A stretch of DNA of 64,000 nucleotides from an uncultured Gammaproteobacteria bacterium. GTDB taxonomy: Bacteria; Patescibacteriota; Patescibacteriia; Patescibacteriales; UBA12465. How positions within the stretch are numbered: the stretch's first letter is position 1; every line of letters begins with the position of its first letter. Shown here piece after piece: positions 6,182 through 36,528 of the stretch. The stretch is from contig CAZFBV010000002.1 in assembly GCA_964517325.1 (NCBI GenBank), positions 5,728-69,727 of the forward strand, written 5' to 3'. The notes under the pieces are model-generated. The model searched no databases and was not told where the DNA came from. It worked only from the letters and a program-made list of their open reading frames with translations. Position numbers and translations under genes: made by a program.

Positions 6182-6186
6182 TCAAG

Positions 6187-23992: not shown

Positions 23993-25507
23993 ATGCCGGC
24001 AGCCAAAGAAGCTAAACAAGAAGCTGAAGCCAAACAAGAGGCTATCGTTCCGTCGAACGAGCGCCAGGAACGCCTGAAGAAGCTGGAAGAATTGAAGCAG
24101 GCGGGTCTTAATCCTTATCCGGCTAAGGTTGAACGCGACCGTGAGATTGCTGCCGTATTGGCTGATTTTGAGGCTCTGAGCGGCTCTCAGGAGGCTTTTA
24201 CCATCGTCGGTCGCCTGCGCGCCAAGCGCGAGCATGGCAACCTGGCTTTCGCTAACCTCGAAGACGCTTCCGGCAATATCCAGATTGCTTTCTCCAAGAA
24301 AGATCTCGGCGCTGATTCATATAAGAATTTTTTGAAATTCATCGACGTTGCCGATTTTATCCAGGTCAAAGGCTATGCATTTTTGACCCATAAAGGCGAG
24401 AAGAGCGTCATGGTCCGCGACTGGAAGCTGCTGACTAAGGCTTTGCGCCCGATTCCTGACGCTTGGTATGGCTTGAAGGACGAAGAGGAGAGATTGCGCA
24501 AGCGCTATCTTGATTTATTATTGAATCCTGAATTAAGAGACATATTCTATAAGAAAGCGATGTTCTGGGAAACCGTGCGTTTCTTCATGAAGAGCCATGG
24601 CTTTTTTGAAGTTGAAACTCCGACCATAGAGACGACGACCGGCGGCGCGGAAGCTAATCCTTTCAAGACGCATCACGATGATTTTGATCTTGATGTCTTC
24701 ATGCGCATTTCCGTCGGCGAGCTCTGGCAGAAGCGGCTCATGGCCGCCGGCTATGAAAAAGTCTATGAGATCGGCCGCGTCTATCGCAACGAAGGATCGA
24801 GCCCTGACCATCTCCAGGAGTTCACGAATATGGAATTCTATTGGGCTTATGCCGATTATGAGATGGGCATGAAACTGGTGCAGGAATTATATCAGGAAAT
24901 CGCTGTGCGTGTTTTCGGCAAGACCAAGTTTACGACCAAGGGTTTTGAATATGATCTGGCCGGCGAATGGCCGAAGATAGACTATCGCGCCGAAGTCCTG
25001 AAGCAGACCGGGATAGATGTCTTGAAGGCGACAGAAAAAGAGATGGCGGCGGCTTTAGAAAAACTGCATGTCAAATATGAAGGCAGCAATCGCGAGCGGC
25101 TGACTGATACCTTATGGAAATATTGCCGTAAGAATATCGCCGGTCCGGCTTTCCTGATCAACCATCCGAAGCTGGTTTCACCCCTGTCGAAAGCTAAGCC
25201 CGATAACCCGGAATTGACCGAACGCTTCCAGATAATCATCGCCGGCTCCGAAGTTGGTAACGGCTTCTCGGAATTAAATGACCCGCTTGATCAGCAAAAA
25301 CGTTTTGAAGAGCAGCAGAAATTGATAGATAGGGGAGATAAGGAAGCGATGATGCCGGATTGGGAATTTGTCGAGATGCTCGAACATGGCATGCCGCCTA
25401 CCTGCGGCTTCGGCTTCGGCGAACGTCTTTTCGCGTTTCTAGTCGATAAACCGGTTAGAGAAACGACTTTATTTCCATTAATGAAGCCTAAGAAGGAAGA
25501 AGAATAA
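23993..25507 (+). CDS. lysS: Lysyl-tRNA synthetase, class II
   Basis: OB-fold N-terminus and class II motifs (YEIGRVYRNEG, FEVETP, GFGFGERL). 504 aa. Confidence 0.95.
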   Translation: MPAAKEAKQEAEAKQEAIVPSNERQERLKKLEELKQAGLNPYPAKVERDREIAAVLADFEALSGSQEAFTIVGRLRAKREHGNLAFANLEDASGNIQIAFSKKDLGADSYKNFLKFIDVADFIQVKGYAFLTHKGEKSVMVRDWKLLTKALRPIPDAWYGLKDEEERLRKRYLDLLLNPELRDIFYKKAMFWETVRFFMKSHGFFEVETPTIETTTGGAEANPFKTHHDDFDLDVFMRISVGELWQKRLMAAGYEKVYEIGRVYRNEGSSPDHLQEFTNMEFYWAYADYEMGMKLVQELYQEIAVRVFGKTKFTTKGFEYDLAGEWPKIDYRAEVLKQTGIDVLKATEKEMAAALEKLHVKYEGSNRERLTDTLWKYCRKNIAGPAFLINHPKLVSPLSKAKPDNPELTERFQIIIAGSEVGNGFSELNDPLDQQKRFEEQQKLIDRGDKEAMMPDWEFVEMLEHGMPPTCGFGFGERLFAFLVDKPVRETTLFPLMKPKKEEE

Positions 25508-25512
25508 AAAAT

Positions 25513-25953
25513 ATGCGCCTTTGGAGCTTATCGCCTAAATATCTAGACCGCCAGGGTCTTTTGGCGGTTTGGCGCGAAGGCCTCTTAGCCAAGAAAGTCC
25601 TAGAGGGGAAGACTAAAGGGTATAAGAATCATCCGCAACTAACAAGATTCAGAGAACAGGAAAAGCCAATAGACTATATTAAGGCTTATTTGCTAGGAAT
25701 CTATCAAGAAGCAGTTAGCCGTGGCTATGAGTTCAATCGGGATAAAGCCGGCCTCTTGAAAAAAAATTTAAAAAATATTAAAGTAAGCAGGGGTCAGATA
25801 GAGTATGAATTCGCGCATCTCCTCAAGAAGCTGGCCAAGCGCGATCCGAGCCGCTATAATAGATTGAAAGGCTTGGCTAAACCCAGTCCCCATCCTTTAT
25901 TTAGGATAGGGAAAGGCGGGATAGAAGCCTGGGAAAAGCGGCCGGAAAAATAA
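25513..25953 (+). CDS. Pyrimidine-dimer DNA glycosylase/AP lyase (T4 endonuclease V-like, Pyr_excise family)
   Basis: The N-terminus MRLWSLSPKYLDRQGLLAVWREGLLAKKVL is characteristic of this family. 146 aa. Confidence 0.7.
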   Translation: MRLWSLSPKYLDRQGLLAVWREGLLAKKVLEGKTKGYKNHPQLTRFREQEKPIDYIKAYLLGIYQEAVSRGYEFNRDKAGLLKKNLKNIKVSRGQIEYEFAHLLKKLAKRDPSRYNRLKGLAKPSPHPLFRIGKGGIEAWEKRPEK

Positions 25954-25962
25954 AATAATCAT

Positions 25963-26033
25963 TCGGGGATCGTCTAACGGTAGGACAACAGGTTCTGGTC
26001 CTGTTTATTGGGGTTCGAATCCCTATCCCCGAG
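25963..26033 (+). tRNA. tRNA-Gln (anticodon CTG)
   Basis: Hand-folded cloverleaf: acceptor TCGGGGA/TCCCCGA (U1-A72), D stem GTCT/GGAC, anticodon stem ACAGG/CCTGT with loop TTCTGGT, T arm TGGGG-TTCGAAT-CCCTA. Discriminator is G; no CCA is encoded. Confidence 0.9.
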
Positions 26034-26076
26034 CAAGTAGACAAAATGCCACTTTCCGTGGTATTTTTGTTATATA
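26014..26076 (+). repeat. Cassette-junction module A: genuine tRNA-Gln 3' end, then hairpin, then TGtTATATA box
   Basis: TTCGAATCCCTATCCCCGAGCAAG followed by hairpin AAAATGCCAC-tttcc-GTGGTATTTT. Confidence 0.85.
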
Positions 26077-26094
26077 AACAATAAAATTTAAAAT

Positions 26095-26847
26095 ATGAAA
26101 AATTTAATTTTATGCGATGACTGCGAGGTCGAAAAAGTATCAGCACTATGTAAACAGCTTGGTTATGGGATTGAAATTCAAGCCTTCCATAAGCCGAGTC
26201 TTTATGAAGAAAACCCTGAAATTATAAATGACTATAAAAAATATATTGATAAGATAGAATTCGTTTCAATGCATGCTCCTTTCGCCGATTTAAATCCAGG
26301 GAGTTCTGATCCCTTGCTTAGAGAGGTTGCAAGGAGGCGATTTGAATTAGCTTATGAGATTGCTATTAAACTTAATATATCTCATATAGTTTTTCATATC
26401 GGTTATGTCCCTGGCACTGGTATCCCTAAAAACTGGGCAGGAAGATGTATTAATTTTTGGAATGAATTTTTAGAGGGCAAATCAGAAAAGATGAATTATT
26501 ATATTGAGAATATGTTAGAAAAGAGTCCAGAGATTTTATCTGATGTTATTGAGGGGATAGAAAAACCCAATGTTAAGGTTTGTTTAGATATTGGCCACGC
26601 TCATTGTAATTCTTCAGTATCAGTAGCTGACTGGATAATATTCCTAAAAGATAAGATTGGTTATGTGCATATGCATGATAATCACGGAGAAAAAGACGAG
26701 CATTTGGGATTCGGGCAGGGGAATATTCCTTTAGTTGAGGCTTTTAATTTATTAATTAAATATGCCCCTAAAGCAATATGGACACTTGAATGTAAAACAG
26801 ATAGTCAGTTAGATTCTATAGAGTTTTTAAAGAAAAATGGGTTTTAA
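26095..26847 (+). CDS. Sugar-phosphate isomerase/epimerase-like protein (xylose isomerase-like TIM barrel)
   Basis: 250 aa. Shows the AP_endonuc_2-like pattern MHAPF..., HIVFH, ENM, CLDIGHA, HMHDN. Confidence 0.65.
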   Translation: MKNLILCDDCEVEKVSALCKQLGYGIEIQAFHKPSLYEENPEIINDYKKYIDKIEFVSMHAPFADLNPGSSDPLLREVARRRFELAYEIAIKLNISHIVFHIGYVPGTGIPKNWAGRCINFWNEFLEGKSEKMNYYIENMLEKSPEILSDVIEGIEKPNVKVCLDIGHAHCNSSVSVADWIIFLKDKIGYVHMHDNHGEKDEHLGFGQGNIPLVEAFNLLIKYAPKAIWTLECKTDSQLDSIEFLKKNGF

Positions 26848-26860
26848 TTACTTATTGTCG

Positions 26861-26920
26861 TTCCAATTGTATCCCAGACTCCGAGCTAAATAAAAATACA
26901 CCCTTTGGGGTGTATTTTTA
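26861..26920 (+). repeat. Cassette-junction module B
   Basis: TTCCAATTGTATCCCAGACTCCGAGCTAA followed by hairpin AAAATACACCC-ttt-GGGGTGTATTTT. Confidence 0.75.
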
Positions 26921-26966
26921 TTTATTTTGAGAAAGGGATGAGAAGTTTATGCCCCGAAGCGAAGCA

Positions 26967-27027
26967 TAGGGGTAAATCCCTATCCCCGAGCAAGAATAAA
27001 AAATAGGCTAATTTAAGCCTATTTTTT
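26967..27027 (+). repeat. Cassette-junction module C (partial tRNA-Gln 3' copy)
   Basis: 20 nt are identical to the tRNA end (26975-26994 = 26018-26037). It keeps a T-arm-like TAGGG/CCCTA hairpin, followed by AAAAATAGGCT-aattt-AAGCCTATTTTT. Confidence 0.85.
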
Positions 27028-27035
27028 CTTATATA

Positions 27036-27064
27036 TTGACAAATATGCTATCATGTGATATTAT
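27036..27064 (+). promoter_or_regulatory. Near-consensus promoter for the orphan cassette gene
   Basis: TTGACA-N17-TATTAT, leaving a leader of about 95 nt before ATG 27166. Confidence 0.5.
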
Positions 27065-27165
27065 TTTTTTAGTTCTTTCTGGACGGAAAGATTGCCACTA
27101 GGCTCCAGAGTTATCTTTATCCTCTGTAAAATGTATAAAGAAAAGTTATTTAAAAACATCGTACG

Positions 27166-27591
27166 ATGAAAAAAATTGAAATTACCGATGGTCCTTCAAG
27201 AGAGGAAATGTTTGACGGGTTACGTCTATTTGCAGAAAAAAGACTTATTCCTTTTCGCTTTATGGTAAGTGAGATAAGCGACAAGCAAACAATGGTAGCT
27301 GTTCTTCTTAGCGCAATTGAAGCGGTAGATGACGGTGGGGCTGATCATCATGCAAGCGGCCATTCCTGGAATCTTATTTTTTCCGTTAACAAACGCTTTG
27401 TTTCCGACGAAATTTTTATAATCAAACCGGAAAAACAAGAATCTGGCATAATTGCTAAAAAAGTAAGTTTCGAGTTCTTTCGTGGACTCGCTGAAGAAAA
27501 TTATCTCGTTAGAGAGTTTAGAAAAGATTTAATAAGCGTTAAAGCTTATTATTCAACAAAAACTCGCAGGGGAAGTATCGAAATTGAATAA
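27166..27591 (+). CDS. Hypothetical protein (orphan)
   Basis: 141-aa ORF with its own promoter and terminator. I recognise no motif. Confidence 0.55.
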   Translation: MKKIEITDGPSREEMFDGLRLFAEKRLIPFRFMVSEISDKQTMVAVLLSAIEAVDDGGADHHASGHSWNLIFSVNKRFVSDEIFIIKPEKQESGIIAKKVSFEFFRGLAEENYLVREFRKDLISVKAYYSTKTRRGSIEIE

Positions 27592-27612
27592 ATAAAATGC
27601 TGAATGAAATAA

Positions 27613-27643
27613 GGCCGAACTTGTAATATAGTTCGGTTTTTTT
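27613..27643 (+). terminator. Intrinsic terminator after the orphan gene
   Basis: CCGAAC-ttgtaatata-GTTCGG-T7. Confidence 0.6.
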
Positions 27644-27654
27644 ATTATAGTAAA

Positions 27655-27715
27655 GTTCTAATCTTATCCTAAGCTCCGAGCACCTTAAAATAGCCCTATT
27701 TAAGGGTTATTTTTA
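27655..27715 (+). repeat. Cassette-junction module D
   Basis: TTCTAATCTTATCCTAAGCTCCGAGCACC followed by hairpin AAAATAGCCC-tattt-AAGGGTTATTTT. Confidence 0.75.
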
Positions 27716-27725
27716 GTAGGGAGAA

Positions 27726-27754
27726 TTGAAGTTTGGAACGGATAGTGCTAGTAT
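27726..27754 (+). promoter_or_regulatory. Putative promoter for the PNPOx-like gene
   Basis: TTGAAG-N17-TAGTAT located 18 nt upstream of ATG 27773. Confidence 0.4.
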
Positions 27755-27772
27755 CAAAATAATAATAAAAAT

Positions 27773-28144
27773 ATGCTTATTAACTCAGGATTAAAAAAAA
27801 TTATAGAAGCTAACGCTATGGGGCTCGCTACTGTCAGTAAAGTCGGAAAACCTCATAATATTGCTGTAGCATGTGTTAAGGTTATTGATGATCAAATAGT
27901 AATATCAAATGCGCATATCAAAGAATCAATTAAAAATTTAGTATATAACAATAATGTTTCTTTGGTCATTTGGAATCCTGAATGGGAAAAATCATGCGTA
28001 GGATTTGAGTTCGTAGGCACGGCGAAGAATTATACTTATGGAAAATGGTTGAAGTATGTACAAAGCTTACCGGATAATGAAGGATATAATATTATTAGCG
28101 CTATTGTTATTAAGGTAAAAAAAATAAAAAGGCTATTATCGTGA
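27773..28144 (+). CDS. Pyridoxamine 5'-phosphate oxidase-like FMN-binding split-barrel protein
   Basis: 123 aa. GLATVSKVGKPHNIAVACVKVIDDQIVISN is a typical PNPOx-like N-terminus. Confidence 0.55.
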   Translation: MLINSGLKKIIEANAMGLATVSKVGKPHNIAVACVKVIDDQIVISNAHIKESIKNLVYNNNVSLVIWNPEWEKSCVGFEFVGTAKNYTYGKWLKYVQSLPDNEGYNIISAIVIKVKKIKRLLS

Positions 28145-28164
28145 TCGGTTGGCACAGATTAAAG

Positions 28165-28232
28165 TTTCAACTACATCCCAAACTCCGAGCAAATAGACAA
28201 AATACCACTTTTCGTGGTATTTTTGTTATATG
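28165..28232 (+). repeat. Cassette-junction module E
   Basis: TTCAACTACATCCCAAACTCCGAGCAAATAGAC followed by hairpin AAAATACCAC-ttttc-GTGGTATTTT and TGtTATAT. The 41 nt after GAGC match module A at 38 of 41 positions. Confidence 0.85.
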
Positions 28233-28253
28233 GAAAACAGATAATAATTTAAT

Positions 28254-28817
28254 ATGTCTCTTAAAACAATTAAACAAATCAAGGAAAAGATTAAATATGA
28301 ATGCTATAATTTAGGCCATATTGATTCATGGCTTTATGATAAACACCTATTAGCTGTAGAAAAATACGCTAATTTCTTATTGGAAAAACTGCCTAAAGCC
28401 AATAAGGAAGTGGTGCTATTGGGCGTTTGGTTGCATGATACGCAAAGGATTAGGGGAATAAAAGGCGACCATCAAAAAATCGGAGCGATTGAAGCCAAAA
28501 AAATAATGTTGGAATACGGTTATTCTTCCGACATGATAAAAAAAGTTCAAAACATTATTCTCACTCATAGTTGTGATGGCTCTATGCCAACAACATTGGA
28601 AGGCAAAATTTTAGCAACGGCCGATGCCATGACCCATTATGTAAATGATTTTTATCTGCAAATAGCTACTACTGGTCAAAGAAGTCTGTCTGAATTCAAA
28701 GAATGGGCGTTAGAGAAATTAAACCGAGATTATAATAAAAAGATATTTTTTTCGTTCGCCAAGAAAGAAATCAAGGAAAGACATCTAGTTTTAATGAAAT
28801 TATTTACCATGAAATAA
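28254..28817 (+). CDS. HD-domain metal-dependent phosphohydrolase
   Basis: HD dyad in GVWLHDTQR, a downstream H (LTHSCDG) and a D (ATADAMTH). 187 aa. Confidence 0.7.
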   Translation: MSLKTIKQIKEKIKYECYNLGHIDSWLYDKHLLAVEKYANFLLEKLPKANKEVVLLGVWLHDTQRIRGIKGDHQKIGAIEAKKIMLEYGYSSDMIKKVQNIILTHSCDGSMPTTLEGKILATADAMTHYVNDFYLQIATTGQRSLSEFKEWALEKLNRDYNKKIFFSFAKKEIKERHLVLMKLFTMK

Positions 28818-28818
28818 A

Positions 28819-30330
28819 ATGAAAAAACGAACTAAATTAATTTTGGCTCTTACTTTTCTTTCATTTTTAGGTTTGCTTTTTTATCTGACCACGCGTTTAT
28901 ATATTTTTTTCTCGAATGATTATAATGTTTTTGGTTTCATCATTTCCTTTCTTCTGCTTGCGGCCGAAGGCCACTCTATTATCCACTCCCTCGGTTTCAT
29001 AATCGGCCTTATCAAGTTGAGAAAACCCGGCGTGAATTATCATCGTCACGTTGAATTGGACAGGAAAAATTTGCCGTCGGTGACTATCATGGTGCCGGCC
29101 AGGAACGAGCCCGTTGATATTTTGGAAAAAACTTTTATTTCTCTCCGATCCTTGGATTATGAGAATAAAAAAATCGTCTTTTTAGACGGTTCCGATGAGG
29201 AGTATATTGCGGCTAACCGTAAATTAGCTGAGCAATATGGCTTAGAATACTATCATCCGCAGGAAAAAACAAAAAGCAAAGCGGAGATAATCAATCGATA
29301 TCTGCCGAATATTTCCAGTGAATATTTATCTGTTTTTGATGCCGACCAGAATCCTTTGCCGGAATTTTTAATGGAAACGGTCGGACTGGCCGAGTATTCA
29401 AAAAAAATAGGTTTTGTCCAAACGCCGCAATTATATACCAATTTTAATGATAGCCCGATTGCCCGCGGCGCCACTTTTCAGCAGTCTATTTTTTATGAGA
29501 ATGTTTGTGAATCGAAGGGAAAATCCGGAGCCATGTTTTGCTGCGGAACAAATTTTTTAATGAGAACCGAGGTTTTAAAAAAGGTCGGAGGATTTGACGA
29601 ATATTCCGTTACCGAAGATTTTGCCACTTCCGTGAGAATTCATTCACTTGGTTATCGTTCAATATACTATAATCATGTCAGAGTTTTTGGCTTGGCGCCG
29701 GAAACATTGCCCGCCTATTTAAAGCAGCAATTTCGCTGGTCGGCCGGGTCGGTCGGAGTTTTACGGCGGTTATTTTTAGATTCTATCCATGGCCGCCTGA
29801 ATTTAACTATCGGGCAAAAATGGGAGTATTTTTTGTCGGCAACTTATTATTTTGTCGGTTGGTCTTTTTTAATCTTAATGATCTGCCCGATTCTTTTTTT
29901 GCTTTTTAGAGTGCCTTCTTATTTTGCCAACCCCTATTTATATTTAGGTACTTTTATTCCATACTACGTCTTAATGCTGCTCACTTTTTACGCTACGATG
30001 AAGAGAAGGCATTATAAAGCGAAAAATGTTTTTACGGGAATTATTATGGGATCAATCAGTTATCCGGTCCTAATCAAATCAACCACTGCCGCTATTTTTG
30101 GTAAAAAAATAACTTTTGAGATAACCGATAAGGGAAAAACCGGAAAAATGAGTTTTTGGAAATTGTGGCCCTGGACGGCAATGATTGCTTTAAATCTATT
30201 GGCGATTACCAATGGCCTTCTTCATATCGCCGAAAATTATTATGCTATTGGTATTAATATCTTTTGGTGCGCTTATCATTCGTTATTGCTTTCTAATATT
30301 TTTAAACTAAATAAAAGTCCCAAAATATAA
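28819..30330 (+). CDS. Processive family-2 beta-glycosyltransferase, cellulose/chitin-synthase-like, without a PilZ domain
   Basis: Motifs VPARNE, DGSD, FDADQNP, TEDFATS and QQFRWSAG (QxxRW). TM segments flank the catalytic domain. 503 aa. Confidence 0.8.
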   Translation: MKKRTKLILALTFLSFLGLLFYLTTRLYIFFSNDYNVFGFIISFLLLAAEGHSIIHSLGFIIGLIKLRKPGVNYHRHVELDRKNLPSVTIMVPARNEPVDILEKTFISLRSLDYENKKIVFLDGSDEEYIAANRKLAEQYGLEYYHPQEKTKSKAEIINRYLPNISSEYLSVFDADQNPLPEFLMETVGLAEYSKKIGFVQTPQLYTNFNDSPIARGATFQQSIFYENVCESKGKSGAMFCCGTNFLMRTEVLKKVGGFDEYSVTEDFATSVRIHSLGYRSIYYNHVRVFGLAPETLPAYLKQQFRWSAGSVGVLRRLFLDSIHGRLNLTIGQKWEYFLSATYYFVGWSFLILMICPILFLLFRVPSYFANPYLYLGTFIPYYVLMLLTFYATMKRRHYKAKNVFTGIIMGSISYPVLIKSTTAAIFGKKITFEITDKGKTGKMSFWKLWPWTAMIALNLLAITNGLLHIAENYYAIGINIFWCAYHSLLLSNIFKLNKSPKI

Positions 30331-30340
30331 AAATAATATT

Positions 30341-30589
30341 ATGAAAAAGAAACTCGAGCCGCTTAGTCCCGCCGTCGCCCTGCGATATATAGAAGAAGCC
30401 AGGATTACGGAAGAATTGGCCATTCCCGTATATTCAAGCCATATCAAGCAGACTTTATTTTGGTCCGGTATCCCCAAAAATAAACAAGATAAGATCATTT
30501 CCGGTTTAAAAATTTTAGAGAGCGATTCGGCGAAACATGCCAAGATATTGAAAATATTAAGCGATAATTATAAAAAAAATATTAAATAA
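30341..30589 (+). CDS. Hypothetical small helical protein
   Basis: 82-aa ORF starting 10 nt after the synthase stop. I recognise no motif. Confidence 0.45.
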   Translation: MKKKLEPLSPAVALRYIEEARITEELAIPVYSSHIKQTLFWSGIPKNKQDKIISGLKILESDSAKHAKILKILSDNYKKNIK

Positions 30590-30590
30590 T

Positions 30591-30779
30591 ATGTTTAATA
30601 CCAGAGACTATCGTGTATATTTTACGCAATTATATCAGATTGAATTGAATATGAAACGTAAAGCGGAAAAGCTTTTAGAATTAATTGATGATCCTATAGC
30701 AAAAAATAAGCTTCAAAGTATAATTGATGATGAAATTAAACATATAAAAATCGTTCAAGCTATGAAGGATTTAATTTAA
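30591..30779 (+). CDS. Hypothetical small helical protein
   Basis: 62-aa ORF starting 1 nt after the previous stop. It contains DDEIKH (ExxH-like). Confidence 0.45.
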   Translation: MFNTRDYRVYFTQLYQIELNMKRKAEKLLELIDDPIAKNKLQSIIDDEIKHIKIVQAMKDLI

Positions 30780-30789
30780 AATAACCCAT

Positions 30790-31680
30790 ATGACGAAAGT
30801 AAAAGCCGCTATTATACCGGTTGGCGGCTGGGGGACACGTTTTTTACCGATTACCAAAAGTATTCCCAAGGAGATGCTTCCGCTAGGCAATAAGCCGATA
30901 ATACTGCACGTAGTTGAAGAAGTGGTCGCTTCTGGAATTACTAATATTATTTTTGTCGTTGCGCAGCACAAGCAAGTTGTCGAAAGTTTTTTTTCCAGCA
31001 ATGAAATGCTGGAAGATTACTTTATTAAGCTGGGCGCCAAGGATCAGGTTGAAAATTTAAAAAAGATTTCAAAAATGGCCGATTTTGATTTTGTCTATAC
31101 AAAAAATGCCCATGGCAATAGCAGCGCCCTCGGAGCGATAAAACATCTTGTAAATAATGAGCCCTTTATTTTAGTTTGGTCAGATGAAATTATATTTTCA
31201 AAAACAAAGCCAAGAATCAAACAATGCCTGGAAACTTTTGAGAAATATAATAAGCCGGTAATTTCGGCGGTGAAGATTGAAGACCCGATTAAGCGTCAAC
31301 GATATGGAATGGTGGAGTTAAAAAATTTGCCCGGTGAAACTGATATTAAAGAAATAACTAAAATAGTGGAAAAACCGGCTTTAGGAACAGAGCCGTCAGA
31401 GTACGCCGCTCATGGCGCTTATATCTTGACGCCGGAAATTTTTGAGGCTTTTGAGGCTATTTCTGACGGCGACGGTAGGGAAGTCGGATTAGTTGAAGTG
31501 ATAAATGTCATGAAGGAAAAGACGGGTTTGCTGGCTAAAATAATTCCCGATGGCCATTATCTGGATTGTGGCAACCCATTAGAATATTTGTATTCGCAGA
31601 TAGACTATTATGCAAATTATTCCGAATATTCCGAAGAAGTGATAAAGCATCTCAGTAATGGGGTTTGCAAGCGATATTAA
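30790..31680 (+). CDS. galU: UTP-glucose-1-phosphate uridylyltransferase
   Basis: AIIPVGGWGTRFLPITKSIPKEMLPL signature. 296 aa. Confidence 0.85.
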   Translation: MTKVKAAIIPVGGWGTRFLPITKSIPKEMLPLGNKPIILHVVEEVVASGITNIIFVVAQHKQVVESFFSSNEMLEDYFIKLGAKDQVENLKKISKMADFDFVYTKNAHGNSSALGAIKHLVNNEPFILVWSDEIIFSKTKPRIKQCLETFEKYNKPVISAVKIEDPIKRQRYGMVELKNLPGETDIKEITKIVEKPALGTEPSEYAAHGAYILTPEIFEAFEAISDGDGREVGLVEVINVMKEKTGLLAKIIPDGHYLDCGNPLEYLYSQIDYYANYSEYSEEVIKHLSNGVCKRY

Positions 31681-31684
31681 ATTC

Positions 31685-32251
31685 ATGGGAATTATGAAAA
31701 ATGCTATTATAATCCATGGTACTTACGGAAATCCTGATGAAAATTGGTTCCCTTGGTTAAAAGAAGAATTAGAAAAGATGGGATACAGGGTCGATGTGCC
31801 GTCATTTCCGACACCGGATAATCAAAGTTTAGGATCTTGGATGAATACTTTTGGAAATCCCAAGGATAAACTCAACACCGATTCTATATTGATTGGGCAT
31901 AGCTTGGGGGCGGTTTTTATCTTAACTATACTCGAGTCGCTGGACAGCCCGGTAAAGGCGGTGTTTTTAGTTTCCGGTTTTCTGGGATTATTGGGCAATA
32001 AAGAGTTTGATGATCTGAATATTTCTTTCGCGACTAAAAAATTTAACTGGGAAAAAATCAAATCTAATTTTAAGAAAATTTATATTTATCATTCGGATAA
32101 CGATCCATATATACCGCTGGAAAACGCTAAAGCAATATCCAAAAATCTCGGCGGCAAACTAATAGTTATCAAAGATGCCGGACATTTTAATTCAAAATCC
32201 GGGTATGATAGATTTGATAGGCTCTTAGCAGATATAAAAAATTATGAATAG
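31685..32251 (+). CDS. Alpha/beta serine hydrolase (YdeN/RBBP9-like)
   Basis: IIIHGTYGNP and the nucleophile elbow GHSLG, plus DNDPYIP and GHFN. An internal ATG (31685) is chosen because the ORF-track start overlaps galU. Confidence 0.7.
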   Translation: MGIMKNAIIIHGTYGNPDENWFPWLKEELEKMGYRVDVPSFPTPDNQSLGSWMNTFGNPKDKLNTDSILIGHSLGAVFILTILESLDSPVKAVFLVSGFLGLLGNKEFDDLNISFATKKFNWEKIKSNFKKIYIYHSDNDPYIPLENAKAISKNLGGKLIVIKDAGHFNSKSGYDRFDRLLADIKNYE

Positions 32252-32702
32252 AAAATTATTTTTATCAGTGCTTAATATTCTAATGCTCTGTATCGTCATT
32301 ACCGCGGTCAGTATCGCATTTATAGAAAATAATAGATGGATGGGGGTTATTTTACTAATCCTTGCTCTATTATGTATCGTTTCATTGATACCGTTTAAAG
32401 TCGATTTGAAGTCAATTCTGCCGGACATATTTTTTGGTTTAATCGATAACGGTATATTGGCCGTCTTGGCAATATTCGGCGGACATTTTGCCGGAGTAAC
32501 TGGGGCTATTTTGGGCGGCGTGGTCGGCAACGCCATCACTGACGGAATTGCCGGAATATTTGAAGGGCAAATGGCTGAAAAATTAAGATCAAAAAGCGTT
32601 GCAGAGGAGAGGACTATGTTAAAATCAGCCGTTGGCAAGATGGCCGGTTGCTTATTGGGTGCCGGCGTTGTTTTAGCTATTGATAGCATCATTAGATTTT
32701 GA
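32244..32702 (+). CDS. Hypothetical polytopic membrane protein (Gly-rich TM segments)
   Basis: 152 aa with about 4 hydrophobic segments. Overlaps the upstream gene by 8 nt. Confidence 0.55.
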   Translation: MNRKLFLSVLNILMLCIVITAVSIAFIENNRWMGVILLILALLCIVSLIPFKVDLKSILPDIFFGLIDNGILAVLAIFGGHFAGVTGAILGGVVGNAITDGIAGIFEGQMAEKLRSKSVAEERTMLKSAVGKMAGCLLGAGVVLAIDSIIRF

Positions 32703-35799: not shown

Positions 35800-35876
35800 A
35801 TTTTATGGACAAAATAGTGCTTTTTATGCTATTTTTATTATAGGTAGGGGGACAAAAATAATAAAATAATAAACAT

Positions 35877-36249: not shown

Positions 36250-36528
36250 ATGTCTAGACGCATCATCAAGAAAGTTTTGCCTGAATATTTTCAGGATATT
36301 CTCGACGGCAAGAAAAAATATGAACTTCGGCTTAATGATTTCGATATCGAGCCCGGAGACATTTTAGTGCTGGAAGAATATACTTCAGCCGATCCTAAGG
36401 CGAGAAAAGCGACCGGCAGGAAGCTTGAAAAGCAGGTTACTTATCTAAGGAAATTTAAGCTTCAGGATTTATGGTGGAGCGAGGAAGACATTAAAGAGAA
36501 GGGGATACAGATAATTTCTTTTGAATAA
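36250..36528 (+). CDS. DUF3850/ASCH-like small protein
   Basis: ILDGKKKYELRLNDFDIEPGDILVLEE is typical of DUF3850. Starts 1 nt after the upstream stop. Confidence 0.55.
   Translation: MSRRIIKKVLPEYFQDILDGKKKYELRLNDFDIEPGDILVLEEYTSADPKARKATGRKLEKQVTYLRKFKLQDLWWSEEDIKEKGIQIISFE

Follow-up and report, generated by a model that had tools for sequence, protein, structure and literature searches.

Behind a tRNA-Gln gene in the 64,000-nt stretch of contig CAZFBV010000002.1 analysed here as a whole (hereafter the window), small genes are separated by short and similar modules, and the question raised by this locus is how such a row of genes came to be assembled at the end of a tRNA. The row of cassettes looks like a gene-capture system not described before, and no description of such arrays in Patescibacteria was found in full-text searching. 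From the comparison of sequences, the array would most likely be a stack of recombinase-less units with attP-type half-sites, these being the sites of a large serine recombinase (LSR) that targets the tRNA gene. An origin by site-specific recombination of LSR type at the tRNA-Gln core was given a probability of about 0.7.

The tRNA-Gln(CTG) gene is located at 25963-26034 on the forward strand (ARAGORN; Rfam, 56.6 bits), and its 3' end (26027-26034) is the core of the first of five junctions. These junctions share the sequence CYCCGAGC, end at positions 26034, 26886, 26991, 27681 and 28190 (downstream copies at 26879-26886, 26984-26991, 27674-27681 and 28183-28190) and are each followed by a hairpin. 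Between them are four units, of which three are single-gene cassettes and one is non-coding; all their features are given on the forward strand. Cassette 1 (26035-26886) consists of a hairpin, an open reading frame (ORF) for an AP_endonuc_2/xylose-isomerase-like TIM barrel (26095-26847; Pfam, E 2.9e-31) and an arm of type P1, arm B, which together with its core occupies 26860-26886 (nhmmer match to the P arm, E 1e-8). The C-type unit (26887-26991) is non-coding; it comprises a hairpin of 17 perfect base pairs (26887-26924) and a stretch rich in GA/GAGC, and at 26975-26991 it repeats the final 17 nt of tRNA-Gln exactly, ending in the core. Cassette 3 (26992-27681) has a hairpin, a promoter-like site, an orphan ORF without Pfam match (27166-27591), its own predicted terminator (27611-27640) and P1 arm D with core (27655-27681), and cassette 4 (27682-28190) a hairpin, a PNPOx-like ORF (27773-28144; PNPOx_N, E 9e-8) and P1 arm E with core (28164-28190). 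The tRNA and the coordinates and assignments of the three ORFs had been given in an earlier, sequence-only reading of this DNA and stand unchanged. The G+C content drops from ~0.47 to ~0.33 exactly at the 3' end of tRNA-Gln and remains low until ~34 kb. The cassettes had been correctly recognised in that reading; the variable low-GC region extends to ~31.65 kb, past the end given there.

To describe the boundaries, related loci were compared with the window; they are numbered L, from related genomes or metagenomes, L002 to L081 being related genome loci. By its LysS relatives the window is assigned to the Patescibacteria, the closest of them being L024 (OW818634.1, a complete 895-kb chromosome, 95%) and L002 (94%), and the order lysS then tRNA-Gln is kept in 40 related genome loci. 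Nucleotide homology to every relative (~40 Patescibacteria relatives) covers tRNA-Gln and ends at window position 26034/26035. In L024 nothing separates the tRNA core from the hairpin that the window has behind arm B, and the C-type unit comes next (L024 12019-12164, corresponding to window 26881-27030, 85%); cassette 1 is therefore an insertion with a core at either end. The C-type unit of the window is also present in L102 and L153. The orphan cassette recurs core to core in L149 (window 26987-27682, L149 2283-2967, 87.5%) and occurs in L178 too. The PNPOx cassette is found in L159 (window 27645-28191, L159 58-606, 86%), where the match ends at the core and the next unit is a different one; in L171 the same ORF stands behind another hairpin. 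Empty sites are present in L012, L013 and L025, where the tRNA is followed by CAACAACATTTTGGTGTTTAAGACCGA..., the sequence that also stands after the last arm in L006, L020 and L024. Synteny with L024 is picked up again at window position 31658, and the window genes between 26 and 31.6 kb have no homologues in L002-L081. Moreover, 14 of 40 contigs of related genomes break within 100 nt past tRNA-Gln, which is attributed to population-level heterogeneity at the locus. The units are real cassettes with exact boundaries, present or absent and reshuffled between genomes. These indels and recurrences at module boundaries in the syntenic lysS/tRNA-Gln loci support the proposal, already made from the sequence alone, of serial site-specific integration into a tRNA 3' end or of an integrase-less array.

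A conserved region of ~190 nt stands after empty sites and array ends (L012 12025-12210; L025 11554-11700; L024 15582-15770; L006 5727-5880) and comprises a terminator hairpin and two more T-loop-like GTTCGAA(TCC) motifs. Scanning with Rfam returned tRNAs only, both for the window and for six related loci, and neither the modules nor the region after the empty sites matched any family.

Arms B, D and E match the pattern GTTCNAAT-N3-ATCC-N4-CYCCGAGC with at most two mismatches (three matches against 0.04 expected), confirming the common diverged form reported for them before, and at the same threshold the pattern is absent elsewhere in the 64-kb window. The exact 20-nt repeat AATCCCTATCCCCGAGCAAG, at 26018-26037 and 26975-26994, was also found as reported, and CTCCGAGC by itself is not enriched in the window (nine matches, 4.7 expected). 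A second arm type, P2, is TTAGCCACACTAGTTCGAACTTCGTCCACGACCCCGAGC. The distance from the start of the motif TTCNAAY to CCGAGC is 15 nt in each of the 34 distinct tRNA sites bearing it (three more lack it). In the arms this distance is 20 nt, both for P2 (16 of 16) and for P1 (118 of 128); for the other ten P1 arms the search caught an AT-rich motif further upstream first. The length from GTTC to CCGA is 25 nt in the arm versus 20 nt in the tRNA, and the two are identical over 6-8 nt only, at the junction. Over 131 distinct arms the conservation extends from -27 to -1 and is about zero from +1, which fits a junction placed at the 3' border of the core. This junction was mapped to within CCGAGC by comparing the joints of tRNA and of arm with the same following sequence.

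In a Listeria phage integrase the attP half-site has 25 bp, and the motif for the zinc-ribbon domain is also present in attB, where it lies 5 bp nearer to the centre (Rutherford et al. 2013, PMC3783163). A displaced outer motif of this kind (~25-bp attP versus ~20-bp attB half-site) is seen here in the left half-sites only. Since the constant 5-bp offset and the lengths of 25 and 20 nt match the LSR rule, the arms are best read as P-type left half-sites. The end of the tRNA would be the B-type (attB-left) half-site, a role proposed for its last ~20 nt, GTTCGAATCCCTATCCCCGA (26013-26032), plus the terminal GC. The modules had been taken for att scars of the tRNA end, and the integration part of that idea is retained; B, D and E, however, would not be tRNA ends, their attP-type half-site being 5 nt longer. 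Dif/Xer-like sites and mirror symmetry around the core were looked for by inspection and rejected, as was a minihelix or tRNA-like fold of the arms, which have no 5' acceptor or T-stem partner upstream.

Recombinase genes were searched for in relatives, and an LSR gene was found at the homologous junction, abutting the core, in at least 13 related loci. Queries with XerD and Hin in phmmer missed these genes, which surfaced through a Pfam scan of the ORF adjacent to the tRNA in L002. In this closest relative species the ORF directly after the tRNA, on the opposite strand, is an LSR with Resolvase, Recombinase and Zn_ribbon_recom domains. Homologues lie directly after the tRNA on the opposite strand in L007, L132, L181 and L011 and directly after a P1, P2 or C-type core in L177, L188, L103 and L135, and LSR genes abut the tRNA-Gln core also in L214, L215 and L216. 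A rolling-circle Rep is encoded 1-2 kb beyond the LSR. Four different left partners share one right arm with its LSR, the joint being at CCGAGC in every case, and the LSR elements of L132 and L188 (7.0-7.5 kb) and of L120 end in GTTCYAATTGTATCCCA..CTCCGAGC, the arm variant to which arm B of the window belongs. In a reciprocal test, four LSR homologues were picked by protein similarity alone (95, 66, 51 and 52% identity); each of them overlaps, on the opposite strand, a tRNA gene in its 3' half, which is tRNA-Gln in three cases and tRNA-Asn in one. From these arrangements we infer that an LSR catalyses the junctions of the window as well.

Other observations concern the same recombinase genes. 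The LSR ORFs cross the att core and end ~61 nt inside the opposite-strand tRNA-Gln gene (L002 11963-13612; L214 987-2597; L215 1677-3296; L216 9001-10716); the 3' end of the recombinase gene therefore contains attP, and the C-terminal tail of the enzyme is altered on integration. In L217 (9001-10623) the LSR with 52% identity overlaps the 3' end of tRNA-Asn(GTT), with CGCCGGAGC as core, and the LSR family may use tRNA-Asn as a second anchor. The element at L216 2767-10716, integrated at tRNA-Gln(TTG) in a Patescibacteria-type context, encodes Zot (PF05707) and REP_ORF2-G2P in addition to the LSR and thus appears to be an inovirus-like prophage. Truncated LSR genes stand at the junction in L011, L135 and L181. 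In L137 (3983-6143, oriented) a 371-aa tyrosine integrase and a RepSA/REP_ORF2-G2P-like protein are encoded directly behind a P1 arm, so a second kind of integrative element uses or abuts the junction. Next to the tRNA of the array-bearing loci L024, L020, L006, L026 and L027 phmmer found no tyrosine recombinase, none of the 40 genome loci has an intI-like gene beside its tRNA, and Xer-like genes were found in distant loci only; the Xer-like ORF of L039 lies ~3.4 kb downstream of its tRNA-Gln.

A scan of metagenomes with the arm pattern gave at least 120 loci, and the figures for the family given here and below concern the matches listed. About 109 of these loci are genuine (AT-rich, with a hairpin after the arm) and ~11 are chance GC-rich matches. 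The arm profile found at least 186 copies, never on both strands of one locus. A tRNA-Gln gene is present upstream on the same strand in 32 loci (21 CTG, 11 TTG), and the only other upstream tRNA is tRNA-Asn, in two loci (L161, L164), at a distance of 3-4.6 kb. Scattering of the modules over the genome, against which the sequence-only reading was to be judged, was not observed among the matches listed, nor was dispersal of the type known for repetitive extragenic palindromic (REP) sequences: the three arms of the window are all at the locus, a 976-kb contig has three arms within 3 kb, and an 809-kb contig has arms at two places, one behind each tRNA-Gln isoacceptor gene. Scans of viral contigs with the arm pattern were without match, and scans of viral contigs with the tRNA 3' end returned just phage tRNA-Gln genes or unrelated GC-rich matches.

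The median size of the 131 core-to-core units is 823 bp, and their interquartile range is 486-1499 bp. Of these units, 26 are non-coding and form a class of their own, of 105-230 bp; a single ORF is present in 68, co-oriented with the tRNA in 62 of them. Arrays reach at least six units. The 189 ORFs make up 158 clusters and represent 79 Pfam families, among them PNPOx-like proteins, methyltransferases, NUDIX proteins, hydrolases, reverse transcriptases and Rep proteins. Cassettes closed by P2 arms (L188 11083-13121; L026 14406-16902) encode a reverse transcriptase (RVT_1) and a small protein that by eye resembles the four-helix accessory protein Avd; they would represent a diversity-generating-retroelement-like module as cargo. 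The non-coding units have a hairpin, a GA/GAGC-rich stretch and the exact last 16-20 nt of the tRNA-Gln of their own host, not only in the window but also at L024 12025-12127, L006 2776-2995 and L015 11644-11875, and the first unit behind tRNA-Gln is often of this class.

The hairpins after the five cores of the window have folding energies of -12.9 to -21 kcal/mol and are located at 26038-26075 (cassette 1, with a promoter-like TAGACA-18-TATTTT), 26887-26924, 26995-27030, 27686-27714 and 28194-28231, the last of these being the hairpin-promoter of the block that follows cassette 4. Terminator-like sites number seven, against 1.5 +/- 1.1 expected, and a strong promoter-like site, TTGACA-17-TATTAT, is predicted in cassette 3 at 27036-27064. 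In 235 distinct modules the mean free energy of the hairpin after the core was -13.5 kcal/mol versus -5.9 for random 48-mers, with a median z of -4.3 and 80% of the modules below -2 (each sequence folded against its shuffles). Compensatory variation had been claimed for the stems. A hairpin does follow every core, whereas no consensus structure emerged when 52 related hairpins were aligned and folded, the stems being out of register; as they are not homologous positions, the variation is not covariation in the strict sense.

One hairpin family, T(T/A)GACAAAA-stem-loop-stem-TTTTTGTTATATA, accounts for 63 of the 235 modules and reads as a -35 box, a spacer of 17-18 nt and a -10-like TATTTT/TATACT in the descending arm. 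Both A and E of the window belong to it, which explains their identity at 38 of 41 positions after GAGC (89% over 57 nt). This identity, noticed before, is real, and the direct repeat bracketing 26.1-28.1 kb that was built on it is not upheld; A and E as attL and attR of one 2.1-kb island were rejected, given that the hairpin-promoter family is widespread. Similar hairpin-promoters, with the shared design of -35-like box, A-tract, stem-loop and T-tract, are found at ordinary intergenic sites of the window, at 35806-35848 (forward strand) and at 6185 and 4298 (reverse strand), the latter just after tRNA-Leu(CAA). The hairpin is therefore a generic terminator/promoter, and arm and core are the specific feature. 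It would insulate each cassette and is no part of the specific site.

In the mechanism proposed for LSR-type recombination, the last ~20 nt of the tRNA, from the T-loop GTTCGAAT to CCCCGA, would be the left half of attB, and the crossover would take place in or at the terminal CCGAGC, where the crossover dinucleotide is presumably to be placed. The circular form of a unit would carry an attP composed of the 25-27-nt P arm (GTTCCAAYTATATCCCARACTCCGAGC) and a variable right arm, and the integrated unit would start with the right arm, here a terminator/promoter hairpin, and end with the P arm and core. Repeated entry at the tRNA-proximal core would stack the units head to tail in a single orientation. 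For cassette 1, the junction of the circle would read GTTCCAATTGTATCCCAGACTCCGAGC followed immediately by AAGTAGACAAAATGCCAC (arm B joined to hairpin A), and the excised site would read tRNA...CCCCGAGC followed by TAAATAAAAATACACCC. In relatives, full-length elements of ~7 kb, with LSR and rolling-circle Rep and in one case a Zot ATPase, are found at the same junction, with the same arm at their end; the window contains recombinase-less units only, namely three single-gene cassettes with promoter-like sequence in front and one non-coding unit.

Several observations weigh against this explanation. As the sequence-only reading had stated, no recombinase ORF is present in the 64-kb window (phmmer with XerD, Hin, tyrosine-integrase and LSR queries). 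LSR sites are usually quasi-palindromic; here no quasi-palindromic site was found, the sequence to the right of the core is unconserved, and inspection of the right arms and of the sequence after the empty sites detected no mirrored GTTCSAAY. Stacking at the joint of tRNA and P' requires recombination with an attL-type hybrid site, and canonical LSRs do not recombine such sites without a directionality factor. The exact tRNA fragment of the C-type unit is the classical mark of tyrosine integrases, and L137 has a tyrosine integrase and no LSR after its module. A 341-kb contig carries one array without any tRNA in the 9.6 kb upstream of the first arm, and many metagenomic loci are too short to show the tRNA anchor.

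For the small cassettes we infer mobilization in trans, rather than fossils or later homologous recombination; that they are currently mobilised in this way is a tentative view, with a chance somewhat below one half. The broader proposal is held with the same reserve. Patescibacteria may possess an integron-like capture platform, with tRNA-Gln (in some lineages tRNA-Asn) as dock and cassettes with attP half-sites moved in trans by LSRs, a possibility for which the odds fall slightly short of even. The LSRs would arrive on small inovirus-like or Rep elements and would insert, excise and exchange hundreds of promoter-equipped cassettes.

Among the alternatives, a fossil array survives best. In this case full elements would have integrated serially at tRNA-Gln, been whittled by deletion and later spread between genomes by natural transformation and homologous recombination, for which the conserved arms, the hairpins and the core genes at the flanks would supply the homology; the small cassettes would then not be mobile units. 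The lack of a recombinase in the window, the truncated LSR genes at the junction in L011, L135 and L181 and the closing arm lost from the distal block of the window are as such decay would leave them. The families of arm and hairpin, moreover, offer 70-80 nt of portable homology, and a published report describes natural competence for Patescibacteria, at least in the case of Saccharibacteria (PMC10187176). However, cassettes and LSR elements have different right arms, which indicates that the cassettes are not simple internal deletions retaining the left junction. The co-orientation of 62 of 68 single-ORF cassettes, many with a promoter-like hairpin first, and their tight sizes show an organization unlike random decay, and an identity of 6-8 nt between tRNA and arm is too short for homologous recombination to make the joints of tRNA and cassette. 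A fossil origin was therefore considered unlikely.

A tyrosine recombinase, either an integrase like that of L137 or a host Xer, might instead have built the array, by targeting the tRNA 3' end or through attI x attC recombination with folded hairpins. The integrase and RepSA-like Rep directly behind the L137 module, the hairpin behind nearly every core and the exact 16-20-nt tRNA fragments of the C-type units, as in classical tRNA-gene (tDNA) islands (PMC4383910), speak for it. Set against this single case are at least 13 with an LSR at the junction, and no intI-like gene stands by the tRNA in the 40 genome loci. The arms and hairpins lack R''/R' (RYYYAAC/GTTRRRY) symmetry, the junction is between arm and hairpin and not at the 3' edge of the hairpin, similar hairpin-promoters occur at ordinary intergenic sites, and the fixed 5-bp offset is left unexplained, all of which makes this origin improbable. 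Finally, a generic intergenic repeat, REP- or terminator-like and without any link to recombination, in an ordinary gene order, would account for the hairpin-promoters at 35806, 6185 and 4298 and for the unenriched CTCCGAGC, but is hardly credible in view of the arm pattern found at this locus only within the window, the large contigs with arms at one or two places linked to tRNA-Gln, the strict orientation, the exact indels at the cores and the breaks of 14 of 40 contigs of metagenome-assembled genomes just past the tRNA.

The remaining features of the region are the following. The distal variable block (28191-31657, forward strand) begins at core E, with a G+C content of 0.33-0.40 versus ~0.47 upstream, and contains an HD-domain gene (28254-28817), a GT2 glycosyltransferase gene (28819-30330) and a small ORF (30341-30589), followed by an NTP-transferase gene (30790-31680), all on the forward strand. 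No closing arm was found for this block, and the conserved region seen after the empty sites of relatives is missing from it. In L130 the HD gene is likewise behind an arm and the same hairpin, but a different gene comes next; a look-up of the exact HD protein matched one 2.2-kb contig of the same strain and nothing else. Outside the recognised array, a 92-aa protein (36250-36528) has homologues (80-88%) in six arm-bearing loci, and a 152-aa protein (32244-32702) is also encoded in L210, where a P1 arm stands directly after it. Upstream of tRNA-Gln, lysS (23993-25507) is followed by a pyrimidine-dimer glycosylase gene (25513-25953) and then directly by the tRNA. This glycosylase gene was found in just ~10 related genome loci, so the upstream side of tRNA-Gln is somewhat variable too, and a look-up of the exact protein (Pyr_excise) gave no record.

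The locus points to a dedicated hotspot holding most of the local gene variation between strains, and the acquisition of accessory genes in the tiny genomes of Patescibacteria is poorly understood. It also breaks metagenome assemblies, as the contigs ending at the tRNA indicate. The TIGER/Islander resource needs an on-board integrase and leaves out units under 2 kb (PMC12424338), and Islander considers tyrosine-family integrases only (PMC4383910); cassettes such as these would therefore be invisible to such tools. In 2014 the authors of Islander described serine integrases aimed at tRNA genes as unknown (PMC4383910). The data presented here offer a family of this kind and a serine-recombinase counterpart of integrons and of the islands of the staphylococcal cassette chromosome (SCC), and more than 100 natural attP-type arms and dozens of attB variants obeying the 5-bp spacing provide material for the study and design of serine-integrase specificity. 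If the capture platform is true, it would be a second, independently evolved cassette system and a natural case of serine integrases that target tRNA genes and reuse hybrid sites.

With respect to known systems, the LSRs share the Resolvase, Recombinase and zinc-ribbon organization of phage serine integrases (A118/LI, phiC31, Bxb1), together with half-sites of ~25 bp versus ~20 bp (PMC3783163). They differ in that the right half-sites here are without detectable symmetry and hybrid, attL-type sites are apparently reused, and in that attP is inside the 3' end of the recombinase ORF and its arm is shared by many recombinase-less units. Islands in tDNA and cis-mobilizable elements (CIME) resemble the array in their insertion at the 3' end of a tRNA gene, which stays intact, in tandem arrays and in att-flanked units without integrase. 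The C-type unit bears an exact tRNA copy similar to a displaced fragment. The Islander signature is an intact tRNA gene and a displaced exact fragment of it with an integrase gene in between; here an exact fragment of 17-20 nt is present (26975-26994), but there is no integrase between it and the tRNA. Those islands, however, use tyrosine integrases, whereas an LSR is linked here, the arm is a half-site longer by 5 bp and not a tRNA fragment, and its identity to the tRNA is limited to 6-8 nt at the core.

In architecture the array resembles integrons and clusters of attC sites lacking integron-integrases (CALIN), with which it has in common head-to-tail, co-oriented and mostly single-ORF cassettes of ~0.5-1 kb with very diverse cargo, one primary insertion site, arrays without a linked integrase and assembly breaks at the site. 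In contrast to integrons, no IntI with attI and Pc was found, neither an attI beside an integrase gene nor an attC-type palindrome with R''/L''-L'/R' boxes is present, the junction stands between a linear 27-nt arm and a variable hairpin, the recombinase is of the serine family, and many cassettes start with a promoter-like hairpin.

In its way of working the locus is like the composite islands of SCC and the Enterococcus cassette chromosome (ECC), which have several att-like repeats, recombinase-less units or remnants and highly variable cargo (PMC6222049). An LSR at the 3' end of a conserved housekeeping gene, serial att-like repeats, recombinase-less units and variable cargo are common to both. 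SCC/ECC target rlmH with a CcrA/CcrB pair and form islands of 20-80 kb, whereas here a tRNA gene is used by a single LSR, the units are mostly single genes of 0.4-1.5 kb in arrays of at least six, and the host belongs to the Patescibacteria, with carrier elements bearing a rolling-circle Rep and, in one of them, Zot. Members of SCC are recognised by ccrAB or ccrC, the 3' end of rlmH and the core TATCATAA; in their place are found tRNA-Gln, CCGAGC and a single LSR. By analogy, then, the system works like SCC but is not a member of it, and the whole is probably best regarded as a variant of SCC-like or integron-like arrays, established at a tRNA gene.

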